A DNA stretch of 64,000 nucleotides from Amoebophrya sp. A120 (Eukaryota; Protista; Dinoflagellata). Where the stretch lies: positions 3,319,320-3,383,319 of the forward strand of contig CAJINV010000004.1 of assembly GCA_905178155.1 (NCBI GenBank). Reading direction: 5' to 3'. How positions within the stretch are numbered: position 1 is the stretch's first letter; every line of letters starts with the position of its first letter. Both the position numbers and the translations under genes were made by a program. Of the stretch, positions 4,893 through 62,263 are shown piece after piece. The notes under the pieces were generated by a model. The model did no database searches, was not told where the DNA came from, and saw only the letters and a program-made list of their open reading frames with translations.

Positions 4893-6416
4893 AAGTAGTA
4901 GGTACCTCTGTCGCCGACCCCAAAACCTCCGCCAAAGATGCGCTTGCACTGGAGCTGCTACCACTACTTGCAAGCGTCGCTCGCTCGAGGGGCCCCGACG
5001 ATCACAAAAAAATACGCGCACAAAATGCGGACCGGATTGGACAAGGTGTCGGAAAAGACATCCCAGGTCCCTCGGTCGGCGCGAAGCCCCTCTGGCCCGG
5101 AGCCCATGGAACTCACGATGCCAGATCCCAAGAAGCAAATACGCAAGCAAGATGATGCAGCGAAACAGAGCCCCGGCAATCATTTTGCTCCCTTTTGATA
5201 GATGCGAAACGACCAAAAGCCTCGACAATGGCGTACTTGTTTTACAAGAACGCATTGGGCCGGGCGGACCAGATTCAGAATAAAATTGGGCGGCGGAGGG
5301 GATTTCAGAATTTAATAGGCGGCCAAGATAGATTTCAGAATTTAATTGGCGGCCGATAGGGAATTCAGAATTTAATTGGCGCCCTCAATCAATTTCAGAA
5401 TTTAATTGGCGGCCCGGGACAATTTCAGAATTAAGTTGGAAACGAGTTTGGAAATAGTTGGAAAGCTTTCCCCCACTTGAAATCTCTGATCCAACTTTTT
5501 TCAACTCTTTTCCAACTTAATTTAGAAATTGGTGTCGGACCCTTCCGCAAGATGCTCGCTGGCCCGCCTTTTCTTCAATGACCTAGCTGGACGCCGGGCC
5601 GCTTCCCTCGAAAAAAACACAGGCCAGGGTGGTTCCTCGCTATGGCCTGCGGTCTTTCATGACCCGGGAATCAGGGCCCATTCGCCAGAGGCAAGTGCGC
5701 GGCTGGCGGCGTGCAAGGCCATGACGTTGGGGGCAGCAATGGCGTTGAATTGCTGCAGAATCTTGCCAGACCAAGAAAGTCCCTGTCTTTCGCGCATGAA
5801 GACGCTTATACAGTGGCGGCCCGAAGCAGGAAAGTCGAAGGGCCCCCACACGCCCTATTTCGTCTTGCAGAATAGTTGACGCATGAAAACCTCGCCACCA
5901 GCTGAGGGCTTGCTTTGTGTATATCTGTAGGAAGCCTCGGCGCGAATGGGTGCGCTACAAACCCAGGCGGCCTTCTGAAGCCGGCCCTGTGCTGCGATGC
6001 GCTGTATGAAGCCGCGGCGCGCTCGGCTACATTCTAGAGCAGTATCGTGGGCATGACGCATGTAGCAGGAAAAACGGCAGCAGCGGGGCTGTAACTGCCG
6101 CTGTGTCGTACGTGAGGCCGCCACCCTTGAGAAATCAAGCGCGTGACAGATCCCCAAATCGCTTTGAATAGCAACGACGAAGCCCGTTTTGTAGCCACCT
6201 AGGGGCACGTTGATGCTCCGTCGATCGATAACCAGGCGCGAGGACTCAGGCCCCTAAAACGTCGAGCCAAAGTGTAAAATTGCTGGAATTCTGAATTCAT
6301 TCTGAATTCGTTAAGAAATGATTACTTTCTAAGGCGGTTTTGAGTTAAGTAGTAGGTACCTGTGTCGCCAAAACCTCCGCCAAAGATGCGCTTGCACTGG
6401 AGCTGCTACCACTACT
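4893..6416. repeat. About 70-bp direct repeat (4893-4968 and 6347-6416) flanking a 1.38-kb unclassified segment
   Basis: aagtagtaggtacct..aaaacctccgccaaagatgcgcttgcactggagctgctaccactact present twice, differing by a 6-nt indel and a substitution. Confidence 0.85.
5272..5432. repeat. 30-bp period tandem array, about 5.5 units
   Basis: Core atttcagaatttaattggcggcc plus about 7 variable nt. Confidence 0.9.
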
Positions 6417-9400
6417 GCTTATGGGAGTGTCAGAATCGAAATCGTCAGAGTTGAAATAATTTGTGATGCATAAAACGGATACCAGTTGGAAGCCCAATTT
6501 CCAAGCGGCGCATGACAAATTTGAGTAGAACCGAAATCCAGTCTGTCATGCTGTTTGAGTAAGGAAGACGCCTTTTGTCATGCTACTTTAGCAGCTCTAT
6601 TTCTACTCCGCAACAGGCTTACAATCTGCCTCCCTTGCCTACTCTGCAAGACAGGCACTTTGTGGGTTGCATTTTATGCATCACAAACTATTTCAACTTT
6701 GACGATTTCAATCCTGACACTCCCATACTGCTCGTATCATGTTTGAAATTTGACGTCGTCGAGACACCCGGAGCTGCGGACCCCCTCGTCTTCGATCCCT
6801 CGCGACTTCTGTTCACCAGTTTCAGCTTCTTCTTCTGCATCGTCTTCCCGGTTGCAAAAGGCGCAGGAGCTTCTTCGTGATGTTCTACTTGTTTCCCAAA
6901 CGCGATTTGATGCTGGTGGTCAAACAGGGCCGCTGCGTTTTGGTCAAACTCAAAGGGCGATGTTCTACTTGATGCAGTTGATGGCTGCTGGGCGTTATTA
7001 TCTTCAACTCCTCGTTGTTGACCACTCCTGTTCAGAAGCTTGACAGAGGAGCTACTTGATGCAGCCGGGTAAAACACGAAGTTGTGCTGTTGTTCTTGTT
7101 CCTGGTATCCAGGAAAAAACACCCATCCCCATCAATTTTTTGCATGACAAATAGTGGACTTTATGCATGTTTTGCATGACAAATTGGATGGGGATGGGTG
7201 TTTTTTCCTGGATACCTGGTGCGCTCCCTCTACAAGCGGGACGGCGACGCTTTCGCTTGCCTCGTCTCCGGTCATCTGCGAAGCGGTCGCGTCTACGAGA
7301 CCGTGTACTACGTTGTCCTCCGTACTAGGTGCTTTTTGTGCTGCCGTAGTACCTCCCGCGAGGAGTTGTGCAGCGGGCTCCGAAGGAGCGGACGAGGCCA
7401 CGCCGCTATTGCTTTCTTGGGTCTCCACTAGTTGTACCTTGGTCACAGGGGTTTGCTGTTCGGCAGCAGCTGCAGAAGATCTTTCTTGTACCTGAAGTCC
7501 ACCGTCTCCTTCTACCAAAGCCGCAGGATCGACTGCCGCTGCGTCATCGACAGGCTTAGTTAATATTTTCGACGTCCTGCTTGCCGACGCTGAGTTGTTT
7601 ACAATTTCTCTACTGCTCTTTCGCCCCTCAGCAACAGGTGCCTCGCTTGTTCTAATTTCTTTCTGCGAGCCCGCCGAGGACCCCTGCCGCATCCCCTCTT
7701 TCAACATCTCGTCATCCCCGAGGACGTCGTTCGCAAGCGAAAAAGGGGCCACTTCCGAGGACGCCGGTGTGGCCTTGCTGCTCGACTCCTGCGGCTGTGA
7801 AAGAACAACATCATCGACGTTGTTTTTCAGCGTTGTTGCGCTACTTGTTCTAGCGGGCCCGGACTGACTTGTCTGCGTTTGCCGCCTGTCCATCATGATC
7901 CCCGCTAGTGTGGCCCGTGTCTGTGCAGCGGTTCTTGAAGCTGCTGCAGTTGATGTCCCTGCGACCACGTAATTGTTGTCCGGCGCGTTTTATCAAATGT
8001 AAAAATGTCTGGGTCTGCAAGGTTGGAACTTGTGACGCAGCTAACTTTGTACTCTAAAAACCTCTGTATTGCATGACCAGCAAGAGGAATCTAGTTTGTG
8101 CTACGCGGGGAGGGCATTTGTCATAAGGAGTAGGCATCAGGAAGCCCTCTAAAAATCTGTGATGCTAGGTCGTGCATCACAGACATCCTGGGTCGTGCAA
8201 AATATGCATGACAAACCCTGCAACATTCCAGACCCAGACACTTTTGCATTTGATACGTTTGAAGACAGTACATCACCGTCGACCGCACTGGAAGTCGGTG
8301 TGTGCTGCTCCTGCAGGCCTGTTTGGGGATCATGATTCTCCGCCACCTCTAGTAGAGCAGCTGCGTTGCTCACACTGGGTTCGAGACTTGGGGTGTTGGT
8401 ACCACCACCGTCGTTGGACGAGGAGAGCGCCACGACCCGCGGTTCGTGCAGCTCGCTATCCTCTGGCTCCTCCTGCACCGGCGTAACTTCCGCACTGGAG
8501 GAAAAGATCTGGTTATTTTCGGGCTGTTCTATTACTTCCGTTGGAATGATTTCAGGTTTATCTTTCACACGGCGACTCCGACTCCCCTCCTCCGTCTTTA
8601 TTTCCCTCTTCGGCGGGCCGAACCGGTAGACCTCGTCCATTACCTCGGGTTTCGTGATTGCCTCGATCTGCTCCTGCACCAGCTGTATGCATTGCAAGAG
8701 AAAGAGTATCGTACTAGTATATGTAAATTGCATTACAATTTGTAGTGCCGATTTGCCGAAGATGGGGAATTTGTCATGCGTGATTGCAATTACTACGAGT
8801 ACGATACTTTTGCACAGGATAAGCTGGTCAAAGGCGGCAAGCTGCTTGGCTCTGGTTTCCACCGAGTTAGTCCCCTCGGTCGACAAGACCCGCAGCGTCA
8901 GCCCCGCGGCGCCGGGGAGGACGCCGGGGATCTTCATTTTCATCGTCGGGTCGATGCTCTCGTCCTCGTCCACGCCAGCGTTTAGATTGATTGCCGCGTC
9001 ATACGCCCAGTGGTATTCTGCGTAAAAGAGAACCCGAAGTACTACTTACCCCATAGTCAAACTGATGATGCTCTTCACTCTGCTACACAAGTGCAGAAGG
9101 TTAGACAGAAACGCATGACAAACTTGGGTCCATGTTGTACTTGTAGTCGCCGTTGCATTCGCAGTGAAATATCCACATCAGAAATCGCCTGTCTTAGCTG
9201 ATCCTGATCCTGATGAGTACGGCATCAGCAAAAACATTCCAAAAGAGCCTGCTTGGAAGATGCTCCTCAACCTCATGGGGCTGCGCATGAGACACATTCC
9301 ATTGTAGAAAAGGAAAACTACATGCAAATCCGCATGACAACTCTGGGGTGAAAATTATGGGTACTAACTTCAACTTACGTTTTTCCACAGCATAACCGTT

Positions 9401-12400
9401 CCTGCTGCGCTTTCTCGAACACGGAATGCCGTTTGGACTATGAATTGCAAAAGTATCGTACTCGTATAAATGCATTACAAATTCCCTCAGCATGAGAAAT
9501 GAGATCATTTGTAAATGCGGACTTACCTTAAGAAAAGGATTTGCAATGCAAGACTTGCATTTATACGAGTGCGATACTTTTGCACAGGATATGGACACCA
9601 CGGCCTCCAGAATGTCCGCGGAGTCGGTGCGCCGCTGTATGGGAGCGTCAGGTTTGAAATCGTCAAAGTTGAAATAATTTGTAATGCATAAAATGCATGA
9701 CCCGAGGTACGTGTGTTGCAGAGCAGGCAAGTGAGGCCGATTGTAAAGCCTGTTTGGGGTTACAGCTCGAGCTGCTAAAGTAGGATGAGAAAATCACTCT
9801 TCGTTGCCTAAACAGCATGACAAACTGGATTTCGGGGCCACCGAAATTTGTCATGCGCCACTTGAAAACTGGGCTCCAACTGGCATCCATTTTATGCATT
9901 ACAAATTATTTCAACTTTGACGATTTCAAACCTGACGCTTCCATACGCTGGTGCCGTGTCGTAATCTTGAGCGCCGCTGCGCGCCGCTGCTCTTCGCTCT
10001 GTGTTCGCTGCTTGCTCTCCACAAAGCGACCCAGGGAGGCCTCCGGATCGTGGACAAACACCATGTTGTGGTGCTCCGGACCCGCCTCGTCGCGCAGGCT
10101 GCTCATCCACCCCATCAGGGTTTCTTGGTGGATTTTTCCTGCCGTCCCGTTTTACAGTGAAAAATGCCCCCACCCCCAAAGTTGCAATAATTTGTGATGC
10201 AAAGTTTCCAAGTGAAAACTTTTTGTCATGCATGAAAGGAGTGTGAATCTTTCTGATGCAGAGTCTGGGCGTATATCGCATCGCTTGCATGACAAGCGCC
10301 GCTTTTGCTAGGATCTTTTGCAATGCAAATTTTTGCTATTCACGATTGGAAATCTGTGATGCTGATAGATGCAAGAAGGCGAGTGTTTCCTTGTTTGGAA
10401 AGGTTTGCAATACAAATGCTCCCAAGTTCGGGGATCGTGGGGGCATTTTTCCTTGTAATATCCCGCCGATCTTCTTCCGGGCGCTGGTCCGCAGGGGGTT
10501 GTCGCCGAAGTACGTCTTCAACAACTGCTGCTGCTGGTTCTCCGTGATGCCCCGTTGCTTGCGCCGAAACATCTCGCGGACAAACGCCTGCCGTTGCGCC
10601 ACGGACATGTTGCGGTACTTTTGCACGGTGCTCCCGTACCCCCGCGACGGGTCGCCGTTCTCATCGCCCTTGTGGATTGCAAATATGTCTGGGTCCTCTG
10701 GAAGTCTGTGATGCTGAATTGAGCCTGATTGAAGCGCTTGCAATGGCAGCCAGGCATGACAAGCTTCAGAGACGCCTGCTGATGGTGCCTACCACGCATC
10801 ACAAATTGCGTTTTTGCATGCCCAAGCAAGCTCCTCTTTTGCTGCTCATGCAACACAGAATTTCCAGGAATGCAAGACACGCATCACAAGTTCCACTGTT
10901 CCAGACCCAGACACTTTTGCATTTGATAGCCGTCTTTCCCACGCAAGTGCTCCTCCAGCCGGTGGTTTTATCCTGTGCAAAAGTATCGCGCTCGCATTGC
11001 AATCATGCATTACAAATCTTTCTCTTGAGGTAAATCAGCATTACAAATTTGATTTCTCATGCCGAGGAAATTTGTAATGCATTTGTACGAGTACGATACT
11101 TTTGCAGTTCATAGGTTTTCCGCGTCCACAACCGGATCCGCGTGTCGCACCCGGTAGGGAGACTTGTCCTTTTCTCTACTCTTTGCACCACGACCGCCTT
11201 CTTGGGTATTACCCGCAAGAACCTTGTTCCGCTTCCTGGATCCGGGGCCGCCCGACCCGGCGCGGTACTGCATGGTTGGAAACGCACCGTACGCCGCGCC
11301 GCCGGGGCTGTTCCTGCTGGCGACCCCGACCGTCATGTCGTAGGCTGCCTCCGCGGGCACGCGGTAGGGCGACTGCCCGGCGGTGATATCAAATGCAAAT
11401 ATGTCTGGGTGTGGAAGAGTCATGCTGCTTTTGCATGACACAGAAGGTCTGGCATGGCAGCTCTAGCATCACAGGTTTCGAGAGGCTTTCGCTATTCCGA
11501 ATCCGCATCACAAATGCCCCATTTTGGTGACAGAAAGTGGGCAACTTTTGCTGCCTGTGCATGAGAGATTTTTCTGCGTTGTGGAATGCGCATCACAAGT
11601 TTGCACTCTTCCAGACCCAGACATATTTGCAATGGATAGGTGAATTCGTACCGCAAATCGCCCCACCCCGAGTGGTCGCCGCTGCGGGCCGTGGTTTATC
11701 CTGTGCAAAAGTATCGCACTCGTACTAATTGCAAATATGCATGACAAATATTCTTCCTAAGGTAAAACAGCATTACAAATCCCATTTCTCTTCGTGCCAA
11801 AAGCAAAATTTCTAATGCAATTTATACTAGTACGATACTTTTGCAATGCATATGGTTTTGCCGACGCCTACGTGCTTGCCGAGATTCTCCAGATCGTGAA
11901 AAAAGGGGCGGCTCCACGTGTGGCGCACCGGGTCCTGGGCGGTTTGCACGAAGGCACGGTGCCGGAAGAGCTTGTGGTCGTCGATCCACAAAAGCCGCGG
12001 GCCGCAGTACTGTGTTTATGTTGAACTTTAATTTTTTTATCCGCTTCACATTTTACGTACTATGAGGAAAACTTCAAAAAAATCGAAAAAGCTGCTATAT
12101 GTGAGTACAACTGCTGCAGCAAAGAAACAGATGAGCATGAGGCAATCACCTTCGTGTAAACTCTAAATACGTTTGCGATTTGGTTCCAGTAGTACGGCAG
12201 CGAGGTGATTTGCGGGTTGTTCTGGAGCAACAAGATCACCAAGTGGGTGTTATACGACAGCGGCCGCAATTGGCTGCAGCTCCTCAGCTTGTTGTTTCGC
12301 AAATCCAAGTACCGCAGCTCCACCAACGTCTCCAAATGCTCCACCTTTTCGATCTTGTTCGAATCCAGCCCCAGCTCCTCCAAGGCCTCACAGAGCAGCA

Positions 12401-25583: not shown

Positions 25584-28500
25584 TTACGTCTGACTGCGCT
25601 TCAAGAGTGCGTGAAAGTTCTCCGCCAGGTCGTAGAGTATTTTGTGGAAGCGCCGCTGGTCGACCTTCGCGATGGCCATGGTTTCGACGAGTTTGTGTGC
25701 CTCCATCGGCGACTTTTTCAGCGGCGGCGCCAGGTTCTGCAACCCCTCGCGCAAACACGTTTTGGCGTCGAACTCCATGGGACCCTGCAACATGGGGCGG
25801 ATCACCTCCGCGACCCCACCGACCGTGGTGGCTTTCGGGTTCGACGCGCACATTGCCATCAGATTCAGCAGGGCGGACACCAGCTCCTGCACGCGGCCCT
25901 CCCGCTCCCAAAGCGGTTTCGCGAACTTCACCACGTCGGGACCCTCAGACGCCCAACGGAGGAAGGAACAGAAAAACCTGGTGTGGGTTTTGGAAAGTAA
26001 GTGCAAGCTCAAATCGTGTCGTTGTACTGGTGACGTTGGACTACAGCTGGAAAAAACACGGCAAATCAAGCGCATGCAGATGTTACAGTAGCAACGACAA
26101 TGAATTGCCATTGAGCAGCTCGTGTTCATCGTGGTCAACCTCAACCACATCGAAGATCTTTATCGTACTATACCTCAACACCGCGGTCAGAGCCTGTTCG
26201 TGCGTTGCTATCTCGGCGGGAGACTTCAAAAACTGCAGTGCTGAGTCGAAGACGTCCGCGAGCCAGGGGGATTGCAGCGAGCCGTTCGCCAAATTGGACC
26301 ACCGCAGGGCGTCCCCGAGCATCTCGAAGCACGCAGCCGCAATGTCGGGCTGGCACTGGTGCTCTTTGCACAGCCGGGCAACAGGCGTGGCGAAAACGCC
26401 CAGGAAACCTACCAGCTGATCGTCCACTTCTTTTATACCTGTAGTGGGTATCAGTTGTGTATCTTATGCATGTTGAATTTCATGCACGGAGTTCTGCAAC
26501 AAAGCGTTCTAGTGGTAGTGTGAGTGTCCCCGATAGATACCATGGCAAAAACTTTTTATGAAACAAATGCTTTTTGTTGAAAATCATGACAAAGGCAAGC
26601 AATACCATGCGGCGCGAACAGGCCCATGACGGTTCTGACGAGGGTGTAGTAGGCTTATCCAAATGAAAATTTAAATTCTGCGAAGTTTGTTTTGGAAAGC
26701 GAGAACAAAACAGAGGCAAACAGCGTTTTTTTTCTTCCACATCCCTCCATATAAAAGGAGCGCCAGCTCACTCTCGACACAAGATACGCCTCTTCTTCTA
26801 CGACCTGTATTACACCCCACCGTATCAACAACAATTATCACACTTGGCCATGCAATAACTACAAGCGGACGACGCACGTCATAAATGCGATCATCATGGA
26901 CAAGAAAAGACATCAATTTATTGTCTCAATCTTCCCGATTCATCGCAGAATAATTTTTTTTCTTCCCATAAGTGTGTCGTTGGCTTCACCTCTGCCGCCT
27001 TCCCGAGCAGATTCAGGGCTTTCCCCAACAGTGGTGACATGATCGCATGGGCCTGCGCGCTCTGGAAAATGAAGTTCAGGGAGAGGCAGAACTGCTCCAC
27101 ATAATCCTCCCAATTTTTCGTCACGGCGTATTCGGTCATCCTTTCTATCTGCGGCCACTGATTCTCCCAGAAGCTCAAAACCGGGTGCTTTGCGTCCGAG
27201 TTCTCTGCTATCTGTTTATTTTTCATGATGTGTGTTGTGAATTCATACTTTTGTTTTTTGAAGATGAGGCTCGAATAGTGCAAAAAGAGGAGCAAGGGGA
27301 GGACATCGCAACGCCACAAATCAACTATCTGTATCTGCATTGTGTAAAGCGATGATGAAATTTTCAAAGCAGGCTCTTTTTTCATCCAGTGCACGACATT
27401 TCAAAGAAAATCCTTAGCTGTACCTTTATGTCGTAGCAACAGGATAAAGCTGCGAGATACAGCTTCAATTCCGGGGGTCCTTTCCCCTCCCGATTGTCCG
27501 GGTAATTCAACACGGACTGGGGCGGTTCGAGCCGCTGCACGAACTGCGCCAACGTCGATTCCAGCGTTTGGTAGTCGCGCATGGCTCCGATGATGTGCCC
27601 TACTGGAAAGACCAGCTGGGGCCGGACGTCAGGGTGAAAATTGCCGTTTAACACGAGCTCCACGATGGAGTTGATCACTTTCGGCCAAAACTGCCCGTTG
27701 TCAATCTCGATCAGCTTGTCCTTGGCCGCCTGCGTGGTGCTGCGCAGCGCGTCGGTGCAAATCGCCTGCGCGTACTGCTTCAGGTCTTTGTCCTGGCACT
27801 CAATTTTGGGCAGACTGGGCAGGAGTTGCTGCAACAAAAACATCAGCGTCGGGACCAGCGCCTCCTCCTTAAACGCTAAATACCCCGCGGTGTAGAGGAT
27901 CAACCGTCCCGCGCTAATCCGGAGGAGCAGCGCGGGGAGGCCGGTTTCGGGGTAGGGAAAATTTGGTATCCTCTCGATCAAGCGCGGGATCACGTTGTCC
28001 TGGCCGGCACGGGCGCCTGGAATTGTTGAATTTGGGTTTGTTGTACTCGTCTAATATGTGTTTGGCATGACAAAAGCTCTTATACGCAAAGGTGTTCCGC
28101 ATGACAAAAAAAAACTTTTACGTGGTGCGACGCCGGTCAGGATGAAAATTGCGGCGTCCAAGTCGTTCCACTCGTGTAGCTTGTTGATTTCGTCCCCCAC
28201 GACGTGTATTACCCAGCTGACCGGCAGAACCTGGGCCACCGCCTCGGTTAAACACTGGTTGCACTGCTCCCGAAACCGCACAAAATGGTCCGTTTCGAAA
28301 CCTGTGGAGAGTGATTTTCAATTATCTTCCCGGGCCTCGCGAAAGGAAACAACACAAAAGGACGGAAGTTGCCTTTGACACAGCTGCGGGGACCGCAACT
28401 GAACATGATCTCTTGTTTGCAGATCAAACCTAATAAATTAGACACTATACCTATGTGCGCATCCGGATTTGCTGGGTACCTGGTGCATTTCAAGCAGGCG

Positions 28501-35805: not shown

Positions 35806-35971
35806 AAAGGATTGCTCAAAATCAAACGAAGATAGAGTACAGTAGCTCTTTACACCAGCGATAGGGATAACGGTAGGTACGATACAGATCGAACAAGGTA
35901 CTAGGCTCTTGCTGGGTTCGAAATAAAAGATTATTTGAGAAAAACTTTACAATTTTTCCTTTCAAATACTA

Positions 35972-37240
35972 ATCCTTAGGTCCGCACCGGACTTACGGAC
36001 CACCCGGCCGGGTGGTCCTTAGGTCCGGTGCCCCAAAAATTACTTTACGTAACTGCACGAGCTGCAACAGCTCAGTCCCACTCTGACGGCAGAGCTCCTG
36101 CATGAGATTCCGCATGTATTCAAGGGCAGAGCCACACTAATTCTTGCGCGAGCTATACTGCTCAGAAGGCTTGCACTCGCGCGATGCAACTGAAATGCAA
36201 TTTTGTTCAGTTCGCTATGCTACAGTGCTTATTTTCAAACTTCCCTTTGGGATTTTAGTTTTCAGTAATTTCTTGAAAGGGCGGCCCTTGGCGAGTTTGT
36301 TACTGGCGCAATGCCATAAGCAGTTCTAGATTGATGTAGTGCAAGAAGTTTGCTCTTTGATATGTATTTGCTGGACTTTCTATATTCGCTTTGCGCTCAA
36401 AACGTCACCCGTTGGCCGACGTCGATCGCGCAGGCACAGTCACAATCGTGTCGGGAGCGGCGCTGCAAGAAAACAGCCAGCACAGCGCCAGCAATTGCCC
36501 ATCACTAGTTGTGTTCATCATCACCGCCATCACCTCTTCCTCCAATCAATCCGGAAACGCCCCCGCCCCGGCGACGGTTGCGACGGCGGCATCGGCGTTG
36601 GTTGTGACGACACTGAGGTCACCACCACCTCTTTTTCTTCCTCCAATCCGGCGACCGACGGTTGTGGGCAAGTCGCAACGCCGCGGGGGGCACCAAACCG
36701 TGCGTCATCCGTGTCGCAACCGTCGGTCGCCGGATTGGAGGAAGAAAAAGAGGTGGTGGAGGAGGAAGGAGTGGTGGTGGTGGAGACGCTGACGCTGCGC
36801 CGGCTGTTTTTCTTGCGGCGCCGTTCCCAGTACTGTTGTGGCTGTGCCTGCTGCGCGAACGACGTCGGTGCCTGCGCGAACGACGTCGGCCAAAGGGTGA
36901 CGTTTTTAGCGGTAGGCGAATATAGAAAGTCCTATAAATGCATAGACTGCAACGCATAATCAAAAGCGAAGCTTTCTAAATAGCTTCAAAACCAAATAGA
37001 GAGCCCTTCCTAGTGCATGTAAAGAGCCTTCTTGTACTACGTCAGAACTGCCTGCTATGGCATAGGGCCGCCTCTTCGTGCAGAAATTGAATAACGTGCA
37101 GAATCTCGCGGAAGAGTTCTGCCGTCAGAGTGGGTCTCAGCTACTGCAGCTCGTGCAGTTACGTAAAAGTAACTTTTGGGGCACCGGACCTAAGGACCAC
37201 CCGGCCGGGTGGTCCGTAAGTCCGGTGCGGACCTAAGGAT
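35972..37240. mobile_element. Non-coding foldback/MITE-like element with about 150-bp TIRs, probable TA TSD
   Basis: atccttaggtccgcaccggacttacggaccacccggccgggtggtccttaggtccggtgccccaaaa is mirrored exactly at the other end; flanked by TA on both sides; further nested inverted repeats. Confidence 0.85.
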
Positions 37241-37726
37241 TAGGTTTGTGACCCTCCTCTAATAGCTTCGTCAACATCGCTGTCAGCGAGTAAATATCCG
37301 CCTGAGAAGATCTTCAGCATCAAGGAAAAAACTGAAAGAACGGAAGTGCGAATGCTGGCAGGGTTGATCTAGTAGCAAACTACCCGCAAAGCGTCTGCTC
37401 GAGAGGACCGCTGAGGGGCAGTTACAAAGTGATGACCTGAAGGTTCTTTCTGCGGATCCACCTCCTACGTCTGGAATTGAGTACGCAAGAAAGCAACACA
37501 ACATCTAGATTTTGGAGCAGGTGCTATGATATATCATGATCTTGAACATCAACGATGGAACCATAGGTCGTGCTGAACACCTTCAAATCACGCACGCTGT
37601 CCCGCGATTCAGTTCATTCAAAAATATGAGTAAAAATTATCCACCTGTCAAGTGGCTGTCTTACAACGCGTCACAACTTGTTCACACTCTATCTGTTGTT
37701 GCAGCCGGCACCACACAGGTTTTTTA

Positions 37727-40700
37727 TCATTCAGGAATGTTGAAGTTGCTCAAATCCCACTGCAGAACTTTTCCGTCCAACCCACAGGTTGCGAACCTGT
37801 GCGGCGCCCGGAGAATCCGCAAATCCGACACGCGTTTGGTGTGGCGCAGCTTGTTCAGGGTTTCCGCCAGGGCCGGGTTCTTCGGCATCATCCAGCTCTT
37901 GGGCTGACCCGCTTGCCGCCGTAAACGCGGCAGGCGGTCGCGGATAGAAGTCGCGGGGGCTGCTGTGGGTTGACGTGGTTCGACTGGTCGGTGGTCTGCT
38001 GATGCACTTTGCAAGAATCGGTCACTGGCTGCAGGTCGTTGCGAATTTCCTCCTCCTCCAGTAGGATTCAGTATTTTTCCGCCAGAATTCATTTGACCAC
38101 TACTGCTCGCTACAGCTTCGCCCGCCATTCTCTCATGGTCGGTGCGTAGGTGTTCGTGTGGCTGACCGGCGGCGGCAGAGGACGAGCCTCTTCTACTTCC
38201 TCCGCCGATGAGACTCCGGCGAATCGCTTGTTGCATTATACTGCCCCCATGGTCCTCGCCGGTCTCATCCCTAATGCCACCAACAGAATTGCTCTTATTT
38301 CTGGAATTCGTTATTCGCGTAAACCCACCATCATGGGCGGCTCCTTGTGCGGCGTCGTGCGGGCCACTTGTGGTCGTGGTTGTCCCTCCGCGGATCCAGC
38401 TTTTGTCGTCGAGTTGCAGGGAGACTCGCGGAGCGGCGGAAGTAGAGCTGGATTTGTTCTGCGCGACAGAACTGTTGGACGTGTTGTTCCCGTTATTCTT
38501 CTCCGGCGAGGCGGACAGACTCAGAAGGGCGGGATTGTCGTTGTTTTTCCGTTTGTTACTCTCGCTGTTCTTCTGTGGTACAAACCCCACCACCCCGTTT
38601 CGAATGTCCCCGACCGGTTTCTGGTAGATCCACTGCGCCGGGACAGCGAGGCTGTCTTTTGTAGTTCCCTGCTCCTCCATTGGCGTGGTGCACTTTCTTC
38701 TGTTCGCGAGTAGTAAGTCATTGTCATCTTCGTCCTCTCCGCGAGAATTTTTCAGTCCTCTGTTCATTCTTTCCACTTCACTTTCCTCCAACACTGCCGA
38801 GCCAAACAGACCCGGGAGCTTCAGCTTACTCGGCCCGGCCATGGGCTGCTGCGAAAGAACCTGTTCGGCGACCAAATAGCCGCCGCAGTACCAGGAGCCC
38901 GGCCCGGTTTCGTCGGCCTCGTCGAAGTAGAAGAAAACTGGCACGTAGTCGAAGCCACAGGCAATCAGGATGTTGGGCGCGAGAAAAGCGACGCAGGACA
39001 GCGGGTAGCCCGTGTAATTGATGATGTGCTCTTCCCGGGTAACCATGTTCGTAATGGTGATACTGCTGTCCTGGCGGCACACCGCGAGGAGCATGGCCTT
39101 CTGCTGGAAGGTGGCGCAGGTCACCCAGGAGTGCGCATTCCCCGCTTCCAGCACGCAGGTGCCGAACGGGGGAGCCAGTTGGGGTGGGGTTTCTGGCTGT
39201 GCAGGAGGAGGTGCAGCGGGGGTAGAACTGCTTGGGGTCGGGCCCACTTGTTCATTGCTTTGTTCTCGTTCCTGCCCCACCGCCTTCACGTTCTTCTGAT
39301 TCTCGTGCTCCGTGCCACGACTCGATGTCGCCCCGCCACCCGCGCCGGTGGCCCACTCCTCGGGTGGGGAAAGACACCCGTCATCATCGACGTCCATCTT
39401 GTCTGCAGCTGCTGCCTCCAACTCCGGAAAGAGCACGTCGGCCTCGCCAGGATTCGCGGGACGGTTGTTTGTTGAGGTTGCTCCGCTATTTTTATTGCCG
39501 CCTTGGTTCTGATGTCCTGTCGCTCCACCTGCTTTAGTTTTGCTCTCTGAAGACGTGCCGGCCGAAGCGGAATGATTCTTCACCCCCACACTACTAGCAT
39601 CCCGGCCCGCGAACGTACTGTACACTCGCGCGGATTTATCAGCCCCGCCTACACAGAGGAACAAATTGCCGCACCACGCCAGCGCCGTGATCGGGTGCGG
39701 GCCGTGGGCCCCCTGCTGCTGCTGTTGGGAAAACGAGAAGTAACTTGACATTGAGCCGCCACTGCGCAGCGGGACACTAGAGCTCGGCTGTTGCAGCGAG
39801 ATGCGCCAGGCGGACCACACGTCGCCGCTCCGTTCCTGCCGCCGCGTGCACACCACGCACTCGCCCGCGACAGTCGCGACGGCGAACCGCGAGGCATCGG
39901 GCGACCATCGTGCGCACACGCACCCGTATAAACTGCAAAAGTATCGCACTCGTATAAATGCATTACAAATTTTAATTTCCTCAGCATGAGAAATAAAATT
40001 TGTAATGCTGATTTACCTTAAGGAAAACGAAAAGATTTGTGATGCATGATTGCAATACGAGTACGATACTTTTGCACAGCATAACCCGAATTCCACGTCC
40101 ATTTGCACCAGCTCCGGCTGGTAAACATGCTCCTCGTTCGGAACCGGATAGTACAATTGGTGGTGGTCCCCTCTGCTGTCAATATTCCGCGGGTCGTGGT
40201 GGTCCTCTGATGTACTTCCGGCTTGTACCAGCGCCAGCTCGTCGCTATTTGCTGCACTGGAAGTGGAAGAACTATGTATGGTCGTGGTCATACCGCCTCC
40301 ATACGGCGGCGCCCGGCGCCACACGTAGGCGCACCTGTCGTGGCCGCACGAAACCAGCCAGCCAAAGCGGTTGAACTGGTATCCAATGCAAACACGTCTG
40401 GGTCTGGAAGAAATTTGTGTTGCTAATATTGACTGCGCAGCAGAGTGGCCGCTTGTACGGCACAACAGCATGAAAAGTTTTTATTTCGCGGCTTCAAGCA
40501 CATTAATTTTCATTCTAATTTAGCAGCACAAAATACGACTTAACATGAAGAAAGAGGTTGCAATAATTCCTATTCCAATCTACGCATCACAAATCTTGTT
40601 GTCCTGCGAAGCTCGCATCACAAACCCAAATCCACACATATTTGCACTGCATAACTCGAAGTCCGCGACGACGTCCGCGTGTTCCTTCAGCACCGCGAAC

Positions 40701-41949
40701 CGATATCCATTGCAACTATGTCTAATTCTGGAAGCTTGCAAAACTTATCTATGCAGTTTTTCCACGCTCCACAGAGTCTGGAATGCAAGCCTGCGCATCA
40801 CAGGTTCTGCACTTTCTTGGTCGTTGTACACGTAATGCCTATTCTCCATGCGAAATTCCCTCTCAACAGCATGGCGAGAAGTGCAAGTGGGCATTATTGT
40901 ATTTACAAGTTGTCACGCATGCCAGATTTTTGTGTGACCCGCACCGCGCATCACAAGTTCGTTCTTTTTCGGAGGACCCAAGAAACATATTTGCAGTGCA
41001 TACCCGGCTCCACTCGGCGAAGCGGTAGCGGTAGACCCAAATCTCGCTCGTGGACGGGGAAGTGAGGGCCATCGTGTCCTCCCCGTGAAAAGCCAGCCGG
41101 CTGACCCCGACGGTAGTCGCCTTGCTTGAGAACACGCGTAGTGGCTTATTGAAAGGAAAAATCCCCCCTCCCCATATCAAGACGAAGTTTCTCATGCTGG
41201 ATTTCCGTACATAAATGCGCGCTGTCTTGCAGTAAGGCATCGCCGCCTGATCCTCAGCCTATGTAGGGGCGTTTGGGTCTACGTCTAGTTGTTTAGCATT
41301 AGAAACGGCTGTCCCCTAGGCCCAACAGCATGCCACATGGCTTCCATAATTAATGGCGCGGAGGCCTCTGCACTTGTCCTCTGGCAAGACAGAAGTTGTT
41401 TGTGGTCTCAAATCAGCAACACAAATTTTCGGAAGCATACCTTTTCGATGTGGGGAGGAGGGATTTTTGCTCTCAATACGGCTCTATGCATTGCAAAAGT
41501 ATCGTACTCGTATAAATGCATTACAAATTTCCTCAGCATGAGAGATAAAATTTGTAATGCGGATTTACCTTAAGATAAAGATTTGTAATGCATGACTGCA
41601 ATACGAGTACGATACTTTTGCACAGGATAGGCTCCACCGCACAGACCAGCTCTTCGAGTTCTCCGAGGTATCAAGTGTAAAAATGTCTGGGTCTGGAAGA
41701 ATCCAACTTGTCATGCTGATTTTGGATTCTAAAAAAATCTGTATTGCATGAGCAGCAAAGGGAGTCCAAGTTTTGCTACACGGGAAGAGCATTTGTCATG
41801 CAGTACAGGCATCAGGAAGCCCTCACAAAATCTGTGATGCGAGGGCATGCGTCACAGTTATCAGGAGTCATGCAAAATGTGCATGACAAACCTGGCAATC
41901 TTCCAGACCCAGACATTTTTGCATTTGATACGAGGTGCTGCTGGCTCAT
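37727..41949 (-). CDS. ARPC1: ARPC1 (Arp2/3 p41 subunit)-like WD40 protein with 6 introners
   Basis: Rejoined SPSTSEIWVY..LKEHADVVAD..LVSCGHDRCAYVW..YQPELV..RWSPDASRFAV..PFG..SWV..QDSSI..PLSCVAF..ACGFDYVP..H..FATCGLDGKVLQWD follows the ARPC1 motif order as I recall it. Confidence 0.7.
39927..40083. mobile_element. Introner family B
   Basis: Family B TIRs; TSD acccg. Confidence 0.92.
40380..40653. mobile_element. Introner family C-like (diverged)
   Basis: tatccaatgcaaacacgtctgggtctgg..ccaaatccacacatatttgcactgcata; TSD actgg/actcg. Confidence 0.85.
40704..41002. mobile_element. Introner family C-like (diverged)
   Basis: tatccattgcaactatgtc..acatatttgcagtgcata; TSD accga/cccgg. Confidence 0.83.
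41147..41478. mobile_element. Introner family F
   Basis: TIR tattgaaaggaaaaatcccccctcccca / tggggaggagggatttttgctctcaata; TSD tggct/cggct. Confidence 0.9.
41485..41629. mobile_element. Introner family B
   Basis: Family B TIRs; TSD ggctc. Confidence 0.92.
41669..41930. mobile_element. Introner family C
   Basis: Family C TIRs; TSD cgagg. Confidence 0.92.
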
Positions 41950-42877
41950 CTTGTTTCATCTTCGCGATCAAAAAAAACGCGGCTCAAACAAAATTTGCGC
42001 TATCAGGTTCTGAAACTATCACTGTGAATGTACTATCACACCGCGCGTGCATGCGCATGCCGTACAAGCAAAATAAACTGCAGAAACTGGTGCATAGAAG
42101 AATAAAAGCAGTGGCCCCTGTATCTTCATCACTCTTAATACCGGATTACAAAATTACAACTTACAACTTCGGGTTCTTCGTTGTTTGTGTCAGGTACAAC
42201 TACGTGCTTTAGGACTAAATTTTGCGTTGTACTGAAGTAGAAGTTTGAAGATCCGTAGAAGGCAAGAAACGCTCTTTGTGAAGAAAAGCTGCGGCTTTGC
42301 TTTCGGGTTGAGAGCACGGAGGACTGTGTGGAATGACGCTTGGTGAACACAAGTGCTGCTGGCGTTACGTCGTTTTTCAGCATCTCTTTCTTCTTCGTCT
42401 GTGACTGCAGTTCTTGAAATCGCTGCGCGTCTTTCTGGTGCTGTTTGCGCACTAGTAAAGCGAACTCACTTGCCACTGCTGCAGAGGCCTCACCTTCTGG
42501 ACACGCCTATTAGTATTTGCAACGCCAGTATGTTTTTGTCTCTGACGGACTAGTAGGATGGTTTTGTTCCTAATTTGCGACGTCAGTCGTGTTTTTATAA
42601 ACATTTTTGCTTCAAGCTTGATTTCCACAAGGTTTAGCCGAAGCCGGGCATACTTGGCACTTCCTGCTTGTTGCCTAGCGCACTTTGAAGGAGGAAGTCT
42701 TCGTTTCATCATCTTCGGCTGCTGGTCTTCCTCGCATCAATTGCAAAAGCGGGCGCCGTCTAGTTTCAACACAAAAATGCGCTCGTCCTCGTGCTTATGT
42801 ATGATCAGGCGCAGTAGTACTTACCCATACGGACGCCATCGTCGTGTGAACGAAAGGAGGCCCTCGTTACCCTACTT

Positions 42878-55610: not shown

Positions 55611-58600
55611 TCACTTCGCCCCGGTCTGAATGATTTGACACAGCTCGCCGATATTGTTTGCCTTGATCGCCTGGCGACAGGCCTGCACGTATCAAAATGA
55701 AAAATCCCCCTCCCCATATCAAAACGAAATTTCCGATGCTGGATTTGTGTACACGACAAATGCGTTTTGTATTGCAGGAAGGCATTGCGGCCAGATACTC
55801 AGCCTAGGTAGAGGCGTCTCGGTCTAGCTGTTCAGAATGGCAAACGGCAACGGCTCCCCTTTAGGCCCAACAGCATGACAAATCGCTTCCATCATGGGGC
55901 GGAAGCTTCTGCCCTTGTCATCTTGCAAAAAAAATGTGATTTCTGACCTCAAATCAGCAGCACAAACTTTCGGAAACATCCCTTTTCAATATGGGGAGGG
56001 GGAGATTTTCCTTTCCATAGCACGGTGCGGGACTTGGCGGAGCCGCACCGAAGCCGCCCGGCGTTCTGCAGTGCTTGATTCACCTTTTTCAAATGGGACA
56101 GAAGCTCTTGGTAGTTCCCCGCGCGCTTTGTGTGTTCCGCAATCATGTCCCCATTGGTGTTCTGCAGCACCTGGTACGCCCGTCGCAGGTTCTTCATGTC
56201 CGCCAGAATGCGGTAGTCCTCCGCCTTCACTACCAACGCCTTTACCAGGTTCTATGGAATGCAAATATCCCTGGATGTCTGGAAGGTTGCAACTTGTGAA
56301 GCTGTCCTTGGAAGCTAAAAAAATCTGTATTGCTTGACCAGCAAGAGGAGTTCAGTTTGTGCTAAGCGGAGTGGGCATTTCTCATGCGGAGTACGCATCA
56401 GAAGGCCCCTTAAAAATCTGTGATGCTAGGGCATGCATCACAGGCATCAGGAGTCATGCAAAATATGCACGACAAACCTGGCAATCCCAATCTTCCAGAC
56501 CCAGATATAGGTATTTGCAATCCATAGGTTCGAAGAGTCCGCAATTTCCGCCGTCAGTTTCAGCCGCGTGGCGTTGTATCAAGAGGAAGAATCCGCCCTC
56601 CCCATATTGAAACGGAAATTTCTGTTGCTGCATTTGTGTACACAAATCAGCTCTGTATTGCAGTGAGGCACTGCAGGCAAAGCCTAAGCCTGCTTAGAGG
56701 TGTTTTGGTGTAGGTGCTTAGCATTGCAGAGGCCTGCCATGTAGGCGCAGCAGCATTACAAATCGCCTGCATAGAAAGGCGGATTCTTTGGATTTGCCCC
56801 CCTGCAAGAGAGACAGGATTTGTGGTCTCAAATCAGCATCACAATTTTTTAGATAAAGCATACTCTTTCAGTATGGGGAGGAGGGATTTTTCCTCACAAT
56901 ACGTTGTGGCCCTCGACTTGCTTCAAAATCCTGGTGTATCCTGTGCAAAAGTATCGTACTCGTATTGCAATCATGCATTACAAATCCTTCTGTTTAGGTA
57001 AATCCGCATTACAAATTTTATTTCTCATGCTGAGGAAATTTGTAATGCATTTATACGAGTACGATACTTTTGCAGTTCATATGGTGAGCTCCTCCAGTTC
57101 CGAGGGAAAGTGCGCCGCAGCATCCAGCTCCTTCACCTGATTTAGTTTTAGATTTTCATTTTGAACATATTCATAATAATCTGCGACGCATAAAGTGCCA
57201 GGTGCAAAGTGCCTGTCTTCCTTGCAGAGCAGGTCAGTGAGGGCGATTATATATACGCCTGTTCGGGGTTAGAGATATTAGAGCTGCTACAGTAGCATGA
57301 CAAAAGATGTGCTCTTTGCAAAACAGCATGACATCAAACTGGATCGATGGAGGCGCCACTAAAATTCGTCATGCTCCAGTTAGGAATTGGCCTACCACCT
57401 GGATCTTGGCGTCGATTTTCTGCATCACAAATTATTTTAAGTATGTCGATTCTGACACTGACGCTTCCATATCATAACGATAGCCATAGCCTGTAGTACC
57501 TGTAAATGCTGCGTGAGGTCCTCTATAATCTCGGCCGCCAATATCCCACGAAAAAGTGTTACAGTTACACATGTGTTGTCAATTCAGCAACACAAATCTT
57601 CTCTGCATGAGAGGGAGAACTTGCAATGCACAGACCATAAGGCAAAACACAGATGAAATGAAGCTCGGATGCAGTTCTGGCATGCCAGAGGTTGTCTATC
57701 ATGCTGGGCTTGCAACGCAATGTGTAACTGTAACACTTTTTTCTCGTGATAGCCAACTCCAGGTCGTCGGTGCAGGCGACGAACTGGAGCTCGTGTCCTT
57801 AGTAAAAAAGTCCCCACCCCACAGTCAAGTTGCAAACTCTGCAACACAAATCCGGGAGTTTTGGCAGCCATGCATGACAAGTTCGTCTTTGTAGTGTAGT
57901 GCAGGTATTACGAATTCCAAAACAGGATTGGAAATCTTCAATGCTTCTCATGTAGATGCGCATTTAGAAATGTTCCTGTCATTGCAAATCTGCATGACAA
58001 CTCTGGTGTGGGGACGTTTTTGCTCAGGATAGCTCGTTGCGGTTGTTCGGGCTGTCGGAGGTTTCCAGCAAGAGCGCCGTTTGCTTCCGTAGGGAAACAA
58101 ACTGGCACTGCAGGTGCGCGTTGGAGTTGCTCGGGTTCGGGTTCTATCCTGTGCAGAAGTACTATCGTACTCGTAGTAATTGCAGTTATGCATTACAAAT
58201 CTTTTTCCTAAGGTCAATCAGCATTACCAATTCCATTTCTCATGCTGAGGAAATTTGTATTGCGATTTATACTAGTACGATACTTTTGCAGTTCATAGGT
58301 TCTTTGCGTTGATAAAATTCTTTGCGAGCCATTGCCAGATGCGGCTCGCGGTTATCCAGGAAAAAAACTGCGTGAGTGTAAGTTTCTTGGAGGAATAGCA
58401 TCACAAGCTTGCTCTGCATGACACAGAAAACCTGTCATGCGCAGCTAGAACGTGAAAACACGTACGAAAGTTGCTTCTGATGCATGTCCAGCATGACAGG
58501 TGTAACAGTTTTGCATTTTCTGCAACACAAAGTTACACTAACACAGTTTTTTTCTTGGATAGCAGTGACGGGAAGAACAATCTTCACGTTGCCGGCGGGC

Positions 58601-61600
58601 CGGCGTAGCTTCCCCTCGGTGACGAAGTGAAACATGGAGAACTATCCTGTGCAAAAACGAGTGGTCCTCACCAAACTGCTAATAGCTGTCATGCAAAATA
58701 ATTTTATCTGCATGCTTGAAATGTCTCTCTTCATGCGGAGCCCGATGTTGTTGACGCGCAATTTCTAGTGCTGTTTTGAAATTCGCGATGCTCGAATCTT
58801 CAGCATGAGAAGCTAGTAGATCTGTGACGCTGCTGCACTAGCTCAACGCGATTGAGTACAACATTCCGAACCCAAACTTGATGTCAGGCGCAAGAGCAGC
58901 CAAAGCTCCCTGTTGATTTGATTTGCAGATAATTTCCAACTTGACACCTATGGGGTGGGCAAGTAGTTTTTGCACAGGATAAGAACTTGGGCAGCATCAC
59001 CGTCTGCTCAAAGGTGTGGTACTGCTCTGACGTGGCGGACACGCCACAGTAGCAGTGGATCTTCATGTGGATTTCCGCGTTCTTGGTCGCACTGATGGAA
59101 ACGGAGTTTTCGTTTTTCGCGGGCGCGAAGTGCGTCAACTGCGCCTCCTGGTCCTCAAAGAGGTGTTCCGCGTAGATCACGCACCCGCGGATCACGCTGT
59201 AGTTGTTCGTGGCTAAGCGAAGCCGCATATCGTATGTAAAAACGTTCCCACCCCAGAGTCACGATGGTGATTTTATTGCTACACAAATCAACAAGTTTTG
59301 GCTGTTTCGCATGACAAGTTTAGACTCGTAGCGTAGTGCTGTTTGAGGTAGTGCAGCCGCATGACAAATGGACTACCTTATCCTGATTCCAGCATCACAA
59401 ACTTCCAGATTGATAGCATGAGAAAATGTCTCTCATGGGGCTGCGCATAAGAAAAATTTTAGTAGGTAAGTATGCCATTTTGCAATACAACTCTGGGGTG
59501 GGGACGTTTTTACACAGGATACCGCAGCCCGTCGGGGCTGGTTTCCAAACTGACCTGCAGCTTGGTGTCCGTGGGGATCAGACCCGCGCGCCCCCCGGAC
59601 TCCTTCATCTGACGGATCTGCTCCTGAGATATGCAATACAAATTTCCCGTACATGTACAAGATGCATCACACCACTTTGGGGTGTAAAACTTGTCATGCT
59701 AAACTAGGAAAGAAGACAAGTTCTGCCAAGCAGAGACCGCATTTGTACGTGAACGGGAAATTTACTGTGGATATGAGAATCGAGAATACAATTTGTAGAG
59801 TTAAAGCTTTTGGTATCACTAAGAATGATCTTGCAGGATCATAAGAAAAACAAATTCAGAATAGATTTTGCAGCGATGTAGACCACGAGAGTTGACGAGA
59901 GAAGCGAAATCAAAAACAAACCACAGAAGAGCAAAAAAGAAACAGATACGTCGAAGCTTTTCAGCTCGTTCTGCAGGTCTTGTCTTTCCGCGAGCATCGC
60001 ACGATACGCCTCGTTGTCCTCCTCGGTTTTCGTGTCTGCCGTCACGAGACCCATGTTTTTCTCCGCTTTTTTCTTTTTTTCCATCGATTTGGCCGCCGCG
60101 GACGAGGCACTGGCCCCGCTGGCCGCGGCCTGCTGCTGCTCCGCTAGAAACCCGTGCACCTCGCCGGTATTCGTGATCGCGATGATGTTTGGCATGCCGT
60201 CGTTTCGGTACCTGCCGATCACCAGTGAGGACATGTTGTTCGCCGCCAGCGTCTCCTTGAACAGGATTTCGCCCGTCATCTGGTTTCGGACCTCCACCTT
60301 CCCGGTCGACCACCCTATCACAACGTGCCGAATCCCGCCCGAGGCGCCCTCCAGCAGCTTCAGCCCCCGGACCTCGTTCTTCGCCGCCACCCGCCAGAGC
60401 CTCTGCGCCCAGTTCCCGCCCGCCTGAGACATGGCCAGACTGGAGCTGGAGGCCGAGGATCCGCCCTGGACCATTTTGTAGACGCCGACAGTGCCGTTTT
60501 TCAAGGCATAGGCGAACATGGTGGAGGAGATGCACTCGAGGTGGGTGACAATGTCCACCTCGGTTAGGGGGCTGCCCACGGAGGAGCAGGAACCTGGTTT
60601 AGAAGTTGATGTATCAATCTTGAAGGATCTTGTTTTACGCAGATTGAGAATCCTTTGCAAGTCTACACTAAACTCGGCAATCTATGATCGCTCATTTGTG
60701 AATCGAATCTCGTCCTCCGGGAGCTGTGCAGTGCTGAAGAAGCTAATGCTCATCTACATCAACATCTTGTAATCCGATGCATGACAACGATTTTCATGTA
60801 GTTCTCTGTACCTCCCCGTAGCGAAAACGCTGCGAGCTCGTTGTCCTCCGTGGCGACGAGCGTATGAGAAGGAACAACTCCGCCTGATACTCCCTAGAGG
60901 CATCTAGTTTCACAAGAAGCGAATCAAAGAAAAAAGCGCATACGCGTTCGCGTCGGGTCACTGCATAGCTCGACATCCGATCTACATAATTTGCACTTGC
61001 ACTTCCTTGTGCCATAATGAGAAACGCGAATGAGGATCAGTACATCTAGTTGTACAACTAGATCACACTCATAAAGAAAATCCGCGATGCAATCCGGTCC
61101 TTCTGCGAAGGCCACCGCCGACACCGTGTCGCCGACCACGGACCAGAACAGCTCTGACCCCTCCTGATCGAACCCCTGGACGCTGCAGTGCCCGCCGACG
61201 AGGCACACGGGGCCAAACGGCTCGCGCCGCCCGAACCGGAGACGGGTGCAACCATCGTATCCTGTGCAAAAGTATCGCACTCGTAGTAATCGCAATTACG
61301 CATGACAAATCGCCTTCCTAAGCTAAAACAGCATGACACATTCCGTTTGTCATGCTAAGGATCTTTGTAATGCAATTTCTACTAGTACGATACTTTTGCA
61401 TTTCATACGTCGGTAACTTCCTTCATGAACAGCTCAGAATTGTCCTCGATGTCGTACCTGGTGTTGAAAAGCGAGCGAGAGAATGTTTGTCATGCAAAAA
61501 TGAAATGGCACGCCCAAGCTCTCATGCATGACAACCAACATCAAATCGTTTTGGGCTAGAAACAATAAAACAAGCCTTAGTAAACTAGTATACGCCATGA

Positions 61601-62263
61601 CATTCGCGGGGGTCCCGACGAGGATGACATCTCGGTCCGGATTTTTCTCCGCCAAAGGCCCAACCGCGATGTCCGTATATGCAGTGCAAAAGTATCGTAT
61701 TCGTAATCGTATAAATGCATTACAGATTTCCTCAGCATGAGAAATAAAATTTGTAATGCTGATTTACCTTCAGAAAAAGATTTGTAATGCATGGCTGCAA
61801 TACGAGGACGATGCTTTCGCACAGCATACCGTAATCTTCTTGTTGATGTTCAGGTACTGCTGGTTGGCTGGGCTATCAAGTGCAAAGATGTCTGAATCTG
61901 GAAGAGTGCATGTTTGTGATGCTTGTCTGGCATGACTCTTAAATCTGTCATGCACATTACCCAAGAGCTCCATTTTTCTGCCATGCAGAAACGTACTTTG
62001 TCAACATGCAGAATAGGCAACACCTAGAAGCGCAGAAACATGTCATGCTGAGCCACCACTTGTGGCCTCATCATGATACACCGCCCACCATCACAAGTTT
62101 CCAGACCCAGACATCTTTGCAACGCATATGGGCTGTGGATCAGCACTTTCCCGGCCGAGGTCGCGGCGGCCAGGTAGGTAGTGTCGCTGTTGGACTTCCC
62201 GAGGACGCAGAGCCCATCGAACACCTGGTTCTTCAGCGAGAACTGAAAGGTGGAAGTTAACAT
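55611..62263 (-). CDS. BBS2: Bardet-Biedl syndrome 2 protein (BBSome subunit), 13 introners plus several GT-AG introns
   Basis: [127 protein letters not shown]. Confidence 0.95.
55690..56019. mobile_element. Introner family F
   Basis: Family F TIRs; TSD gcacg. Confidence 0.92.
56253..56526. mobile_element. Introner family C
   Basis: Family C-like TIRs; TSD ggttc. Confidence 0.9.
56577..56901. mobile_element. Introner family F
   Basis: Family F TIRs; TSD cgttg. Confidence 0.92.
56937..57081. mobile_element. Introner family B
   Basis: Family B TIRs; TSD tggtg. Confidence 0.92.
57176..57471. mobile_element. Decayed family A element lacking its left TIR, inside GT-AG intron 57137-57499
   Basis: Body resembles 9638-9945; right end ctgacgcttccata; tcata at 57171-57175 and 57472-57476. 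Confidence 0.75.
57542..57751. mobile_element. Introner family D
   Basis: Family D TIRs; TSD gccaa. Confidence 0.92.
57794..58031. mobile_element. Introner family E
   Basis: Starts TGT; family E TIRs; TSD gctcg. Confidence 0.9.
58145..58297. mobile_element. Introner family B
   Basis: Family B TIRs; TSD ggttc. Confidence 0.92.
58353..58561. mobile_element. Introner family D
   Basis: Family D TIRs; TSD gcggt/gcagt. Confidence 0.9.
58643..58981. mobile_element. Introner family G
   Basis: Perfect 16-bp TIR tatcctgtgcaaaaac; distinct body; TSD agaac. Confidence 0.9.
59228..59521. mobile_element. Introner family E
   Basis: Family E TIRs; TSD ccgca. Confidence 0.92.
61258..61407. mobile_element. 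Introner family B
   Basis: Family B TIRs; TSD catcg/cgtcg. Confidence 0.92.
61678..61828. mobile_element. Introner family B
   Basis: Family B TIRs; TSD ccgta. Confidence 0.92.
61874..62128. mobile_element. Introner family C
   Basis: Family C TIRs; TSD tgggc. Confidence 0.92.

Follow-up and report, generated by a model that had tools for sequence, protein, structure and literature searches.

The locus raises the question of why inverted-repeat elements of otherwise dissimilar sequence, in one stretch of the Amoebophrya sp. A120 genome, share a short internal motif, TTGTVATGC (V being C, A or G), and whether that motif serves the movement of the elements as DNA or their excision as RNA. A first-pass annotation had taken it for the binding site of a single trans-acting factor, either a transposase or an RNA-binding excision factor. 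Here, the window denotes the whole stretch of 64,000 nucleotides that was analysed, and the scope is this 64-kb window together with related metagenome loci.

The related loci come from a metagenome scan for the motif doublet, which returned at least 128 loci. At least 67 of these have one assembly prefix in common and bear the same families, with at least 156 elements therein; they may derive from the same organism, and they are therefore counted as further loci and not as a second species. At least 61 loci show no similarity to the elements, and the nine of these richest in the motif consist of eight tandem repeats and one set of scattered matches.

Introners of the window

Pairs of TAT...ATA ends flanked by a perfect 5-bp direct repeat occur 44 times in the window, as compared to 0-2 times in three shuffled versions. 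The catalogue used throughout comprises 54 elements in 13 sequence groups: 47 of the 54 rows of the pair search (7 overlapping or weak ones were removed) and seven decayed copies added by eye. A perfect 5-bp repeat flanks 43 of the 54 elements and a 6-bp repeat none, and the mismatch rate within the target duplications is 15/270. A Tc1/mariner origin, with its TA target, was rejected because the duplication is 5 bp long and variable. The terminal inverted repeats (TIRs) had been described as dissimilar between families, which is not wholly the case, as nearly all ends begin with TAT and have a run of A near positions 11-14. When an element and one repeat are removed in silico, long frames on the minus strand are restored, as in the following two examples; for the first, the exon examined gave no Pfam match.

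6348..9045, minus strand: host reading frame, 620 codons after removal of four elements and one duplication each
37730-41955, minus strand: restored frame of 909 codons

The window elements are the published A120 introners (Farhat 2021, PMC7789003), with whose anatomy, as set out in the accessible part of that report, they share the TAT...ATA ends and the 5-bp target duplication. The same part defines the inverted repeat as TAT, seven variable bases and at least three A, flanked by direct repeats of 3-5 nt, and attributes 17% of the A120 genome to introners of 1,954 families, whose splicing route is given as not known. It argues against a general mobilisation by transposase, reporting none in A120.

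Several other arrangements were observed. The region 35969-37243 is a different TIR element, free of the motif, with 78-bp arms that are 99% complementary and no Pfam match for the frame tested. The elements at 57135-57497 and 59623-59948 are nested within canonical introns, and 59630-59773 lies a few bases from the acceptor. At 47490-47949, two elements stand in tandem and share a single ACTGC repeat between them, while about 70 bp of exon with its splice donor (4898-4968 and 6350-6419) is apparently duplicated inside a 1.6-kb intron. Elements 10671 and 57794 each possess one TGT end instead of TAT. Rfam gave no match in 6400-12000.

An internal motif common to the families

The window contains 118 exact matches to TTGTVATGC, whereas 2.74 +/- 1.6 are expected from 100 shuffles, the shuffle maximum being 7. 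Of these matches, 103 lie inside the 54 catalogued elements (12,372 bp in total), eight in decayed or truncated elements and five in three TIR-less introns, and only two are found in the other 49,930 bp. The density is thus 8.3 exact copies per kb in the elements, as opposed to 0.04 per kb in the remaining sequence. Every one of the 13 sequence groups includes an exact copy, confirming the earlier claim that the motif is common to the families. The claim that several copies occur everywhere proved too general: two or more exact matches are found in 34 of the 54 elements, and six have none. A matrix fitted on the window elements reads GCA(T/A)(C/G/T)(A/G)(C/G)A(A/G), and a repeat of the form GCAT(C/G/T)ACA(A/G) is conserved inside the Amoebophrya TAT...ATA introners. 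The TIRs themselves resemble the motif at positions 4-12, in that register only, with 60% of the 108 ends above the 95th background percentile; the ends of D308, G330 and 32367 score poorly.

Among the matches listed for the related loci, an exact copy is present in 92 of 100 elements that were not selected by pattern, the sites of 622-834 bp elements are mostly near the ends, and one 111-bp and one 324-bp element are without sites. No motif site passes the threshold in the palindromic 111-bp TAT...ATA element at L061:2779-2889, which has a 5-bp repeat, and an 815-bp TAT...ATA element (L075:4583-5397), close in size to the published family 38, has motif sites only towards its ends.

A description of the motif or of its spacing was not found in the accessible literature, which takes in few subscription papers. 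The accessible text of PMC7789003 describes no shared internal motif or spacing, and its Fig. 4, S19 and S25 could show the motif; likewise, the accessible part of Gozashti 2025 (PMC12130899), which treats A120 families, does not mention an internal motif.

The shortest element

The element at 7106-7214 is the shortest of the 54 in the window, as had been proposed, and among the matches listed it ties for the shortest of at least 156 further elements. Its parts are as follows.

7101..7105: target-site duplication CCTGG, left copy
7106..7214, no strand assigned: non-autonomous TIR element (introner) of 109 bp, shortest size class, with perfect 28-bp TIRs
7106..7133, plus strand: left 28-bp TIR, starting TAT-N7-AAA
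7142..7152, plus strand: motif copy 1, GCATGACAAAT, centred 69 bp from the right end
7174..7184, plus strand: motif copy 2, GCATGACAAAT, centred 37 bp from the right end and 32 bp further on than copy 1
7187..7214, minus strand: right 28-bp TIR
7215..7219: target-site duplication CCTGG, right copy
7102..7215, minus strand: 114-nt intron, the element plus one duplication, in an inferred exact register that would read GT...AG

The description of this element as 28-bp TIRs enclosing two motif copies holds, except that 31 bases of its 53-base interior fall outside the motif, and the copies, said across the families to occur in both orientations, here point the same way. It shares with the A120 introners, as portrayed in the accessible part of PMC7789003, the TAT-N7-AAA inverted repeat, a direct repeat (here CCTGG), removal from the transcript and the occurrence of copies at unrelated loci. 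With regard to removal, contigs of runs X1 and X4 (guessed to be RNA, from one sample) join 7215 to 7100 with 114 nt taken out; in run X5, contigs running into elements are present.

Among the matches listed, five siblings of 109-116 bp occur at other loci with differing duplications, three of the five not pattern-selected. All six family members retain both sites, spaced by 32 bp in five and by 39 bp in one; copy 2 is exact in five of the six, and the spacer is the most variable part. With sites lying 37 and 69 bp in from one end, the family reproduces the end geometry of the longer C210 and E280 families. The 109-bp family may be pictured as a single end module, a TIR with sites 37 and 69 bp in, which would have been closed by a second TIR. 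Of the TIR DNA introners that PMC12130899 lists for A120 in its Dataset file 8, fam14 (about 106 bp) and fam56 (105-108 bp) match this family by size only.

Spacing, conservation and decay of the motif

Of 89 consecutive motif pairs in the window, 34 are 30-34 bp apart, where the null has a mean of 6.1 and a maximum of 15 in 3000; this range was chosen post hoc, with the data already seen. The spacing was replicated in 100 elements not selected by pattern, among the matches listed, where on average 10.6 of 17 families have two same-strand sites at 31-33 bp, the null giving 1.6. Opposed pairs concentrate at 15-17 and 33-34 bp, and in most families the end-most outward sites cluster 36-37 or 44-47 bp in. 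Three turns of B-DNA measure 31.5 bp. No 10.5-bp periodicity was detected beyond the 31-33 peak, and a helical reading therefore rests on this one distance.

In nine of nine families, conservation is higher at motif columns than at the other interior columns and approximately reaches that of the terminal 16 bp, as illustrated by B260 (motif 0.87, other interior 0.69, ends 0.85); the alignments include pattern-selected copies, and in all family-level counts the families share ancestry and are not fully independent. Where a column is free of subfamily variation, the deviation is 0.039 for motif positions and 0.060 for others, which also fits some selection after insertion.

With a mismatched duplication as the proxy for an older copy, the 107 copies with perfect repeats deviate by 0.040 at the motif and 0.061 at other conserved columns, while the 20 copies with mismatched repeats deviate by 0.059 at both, a rise at the motif with p=0.066. 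This pattern fits neutral decay after insertion, without proving it. A split by tertiles of age was discarded as circular, since it sorts on the very variable being compared.

The five exact copies in TIR-less GT-AG introns are distributed over 28015-28119, 60592-60809 and 61454-61589, two of which have a pair at 32-34 bp. These introns may be deletion relics or a sign of a host role. One of them is described by the following feature, whose best match is the 109-bp family over 21 bp (E=0.003, mostly motif), and which, to judge by that alignment, is a possible relic of the family.

28015..28119, minus strand: GT-AG intron lacking TIRs, in which two exact motif copies are spaced by 34 bp

Splicing of the elements

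Three features bear on the removal of elements from transcripts.

55614..62263, minus strand: BBS2 gene with 18 introns, in which elements of either orientation are spliced
60863..61073: old TAT...ATA element, duplication matching at 2 of 5 positions, motif-free, still skipped as 216 nt (element + 5)
26656..26970: old TAT...ATA element without the motif, an intron by the annotated protein P0008 only

The BBS2 exon 59842-60582 (minus strand) matches at 99% a protein labelled Amoebophrya sp. A120, and at 59% one labelled A25. In each run (guessed to be RNA, one sample), one contig spans BBS2 with all 18 introns out; 15 of 21 joints were displayed, and the other part, of 396 nt, is identical to the predicted exons. 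All 14 junctions checked skip the element and 5 nt. Families A150 and E280, each in both orientations, are removed from one BBS2 transcript (in the window as a whole, A150 has eight copies in either orientation), and the spliced set includes three elements without an exact motif and one with a TGT end. This last element, 57794, has its TAT end on the donor side. The best motif score in the element at 60863-61073 is 7.7, close to the median of 6.6 for exons; this element is the single motif-free case with RNA support. A raw-read run, X8, was uninformative, nearly all of its 124 reads being partial matches at another element.

Three junctions have mutated repeats (58353-58561, 60863-61073 and 61258-61407) and jointly fix the cut, given one register; if that register holds for all elements, the donor lies 1 nt upstream of TAT and the acceptor 4 nt downstream of ATA. 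TAT would then occupy +2 to +4, matching the canonical donors of the genome, GTAT/GTAC. The register agrees with the GT, CT, AT and TT donors among the non-canonical NT- donors that Table S4 of PMC7789003 gives for A120 introners.

The motif shows no reproducible strand bias in the window and in 65 further elements, among the matches listed. Strong sites in the window are split 73 to 66 by strand, and exact copies 61 to 42 in favour of sense UUGU (p=0.076); in the 65 further elements, from 18 loci with the strand inferred from reading frames, the split is 62 to 69. This strand neutrality, the splicing of both orientations and the removal of a motif-free element together favour a site in double-stranded DNA over an RNA excision signal. 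Therefore, of the two options originally offered, the transposase fits and the RNA-binding excision factor does not, and the motif is likely dispensable for splicing out the elements. This comes close to the condition under which the first-pass annotation would have the motif serve transposition only, namely neutral decay in old copies that are still spliced.

Function of the motif

Judging from sequence, the motif is probably where the mobilising protein of the elements contacts double-stranded DNA, with splicing left to the ends. Near either end, such a protein would bind sites in pairs, separated by some three turns of DNA, and copies keeping the array would be copied more often, which would explain why unrelated element bodies share the motif. 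Splicing would use the ends instead, namely the N|TAT donor, the paired TIRs and a cut 4 nt past ATA. The proposal of one factor gains indirect support from conservation at the level of the termini while spacers diverge and from the fixed spacing of 31-33 bp, and the motif is a candidate site for it.

In having a short repeat inside the TIRs that is conserved like the ends, the elements resemble those with subterminal transposase-binding repeats. In the accessible accounts of Ac/Ds (AAACGG, PMC3260210) and Lemi1/Emigrant (PMC1636448), binding of subterminal repeats has been demonstrated and the transposase is known, and there, too, short internal repeats occur in non-autonomous elements otherwise sharing little; a title in the reference list of PMC3260210 indicates that Ds1 can be spliced. 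The Amoebophrya sites differ in spanning many families with differing TIRs and in their 31-33 bp spacing, and their partner is a putative one.

The first alternative is that a host architectural or chromatin protein binds the motif, aiding a separate nuclease at the ends or favouring retention of copies. We consider this unlikely, even though all DNA-level evidence fits it equally well and it would agree with the lack of a transposase here and in the accessible part of PMC7789003, with TIRs that vary between families while the motif stays constant (the poorly scoring ends of D308, G330 and 32367) and with the exact copies held by TIR-less introns. A general host site would not be expected to be nearly absent outside elements (2 in 49.9 kb), and the resemblance of TIR positions 4-12 to the motif in most families is what one protein reading both would produce. 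A bolder version, in which one host-encoded or domesticated DNA-binding protein reads the array, mobilises about two thousand A120 families without a classical transposase and marks young insertions on DNA for co-transcriptional splicing, in a cell reportedly without U1 snRNA, is a long shot.

It is similarly improbable that the motif is a relic of shared descent, with structure, and no binding protein, preserving old internal duplications and extended inverted repeats. In B260 and D308, the outward sites of the two ends do pair within long imperfect TIRs, motif bases are mostly predicted to be paired in folded RNA (0.63-1.0), and there is no general helical phasing. However, motif and spacing stay fixed while spacers diverge, and the copies of 7106-7214, both in one orientation, are unable to pair with one another.

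Most improbable of all is that the motif acts in RNA, as the target of a factor that would excise these non-canonical introns or enhance their splicing. The slight excess of sense UUGU in the window, the motif retained in three GT-AG introns, the lower deviation of motif columns and the absence of U1 snRNA reported in the accessible part of PMC7789003 speak for it. Against it, the strand bias is not replicated in the further elements, among the matches listed; splicing takes place alike in 57794/59228, whose sites are all sense UUGU, and in 58643, where three of four are sense GCAU; 60863-61073 is removed exactly with no site above exon background; and five canonical exportin introns are without a site. 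The motif may still enhance splicing weakly, as contigs show presence and not efficiency.

The proposed mobilising protein

Should the motif be a DNA site for a mobilising protein, that protein is most likely one integrase-like transposase. The TA ends and 5-bp repeat of the window elements fit fam38 of PMC12130899, which the accessible part of that work describes as about 810 bp long, with "5-bp TSD, TA/TA termini", Ginger-like and with LTR-integrase homology; fam38 and the 815-bp element are matched by size only. The IS3EU/GingerRoot elements, in the accessible parts of PMC10045372 and PMC6839031, also have TA...TA termini, occasionally TG...CA, which recalls the two window elements with one TGT end. 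Target duplications in IS3EU/GingerRoot usually measure 6 bp, unlike the 5 bp of 43 of the 54 window elements (6 bp in none).

No integrase-like DDE transposase of the IS3EU/GingerRoot type was found in the window and the related-loci sequence, among the matches listed. The search for a transposase gave no Pfam signal in 27 window frames, none in 60 of 101 long frames of related loci (among the matches listed) and none in eight frames of the 815-bp element. The sole homologue found for that element, P0011, has no Pfam match and eight unnamed relatives. There was no plasmid match, viral contigs gave no TIR match, and no autonomous partner element was found in the window or the related loci, among the matches listed.

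Implications

The elements have already been published; new are the conservation of the motif, its recurrence at 31-33 bp and the lack of a reproducible strand bias. What is needed to move, by inference the motif and the ends, is hereby set apart from what is needed for splicing, the ends. The motif array offers a defined DNA bait for the missing mobilising protein, and a shared site at fixed spacing suggests that the introner families are clients of one mobilising system.
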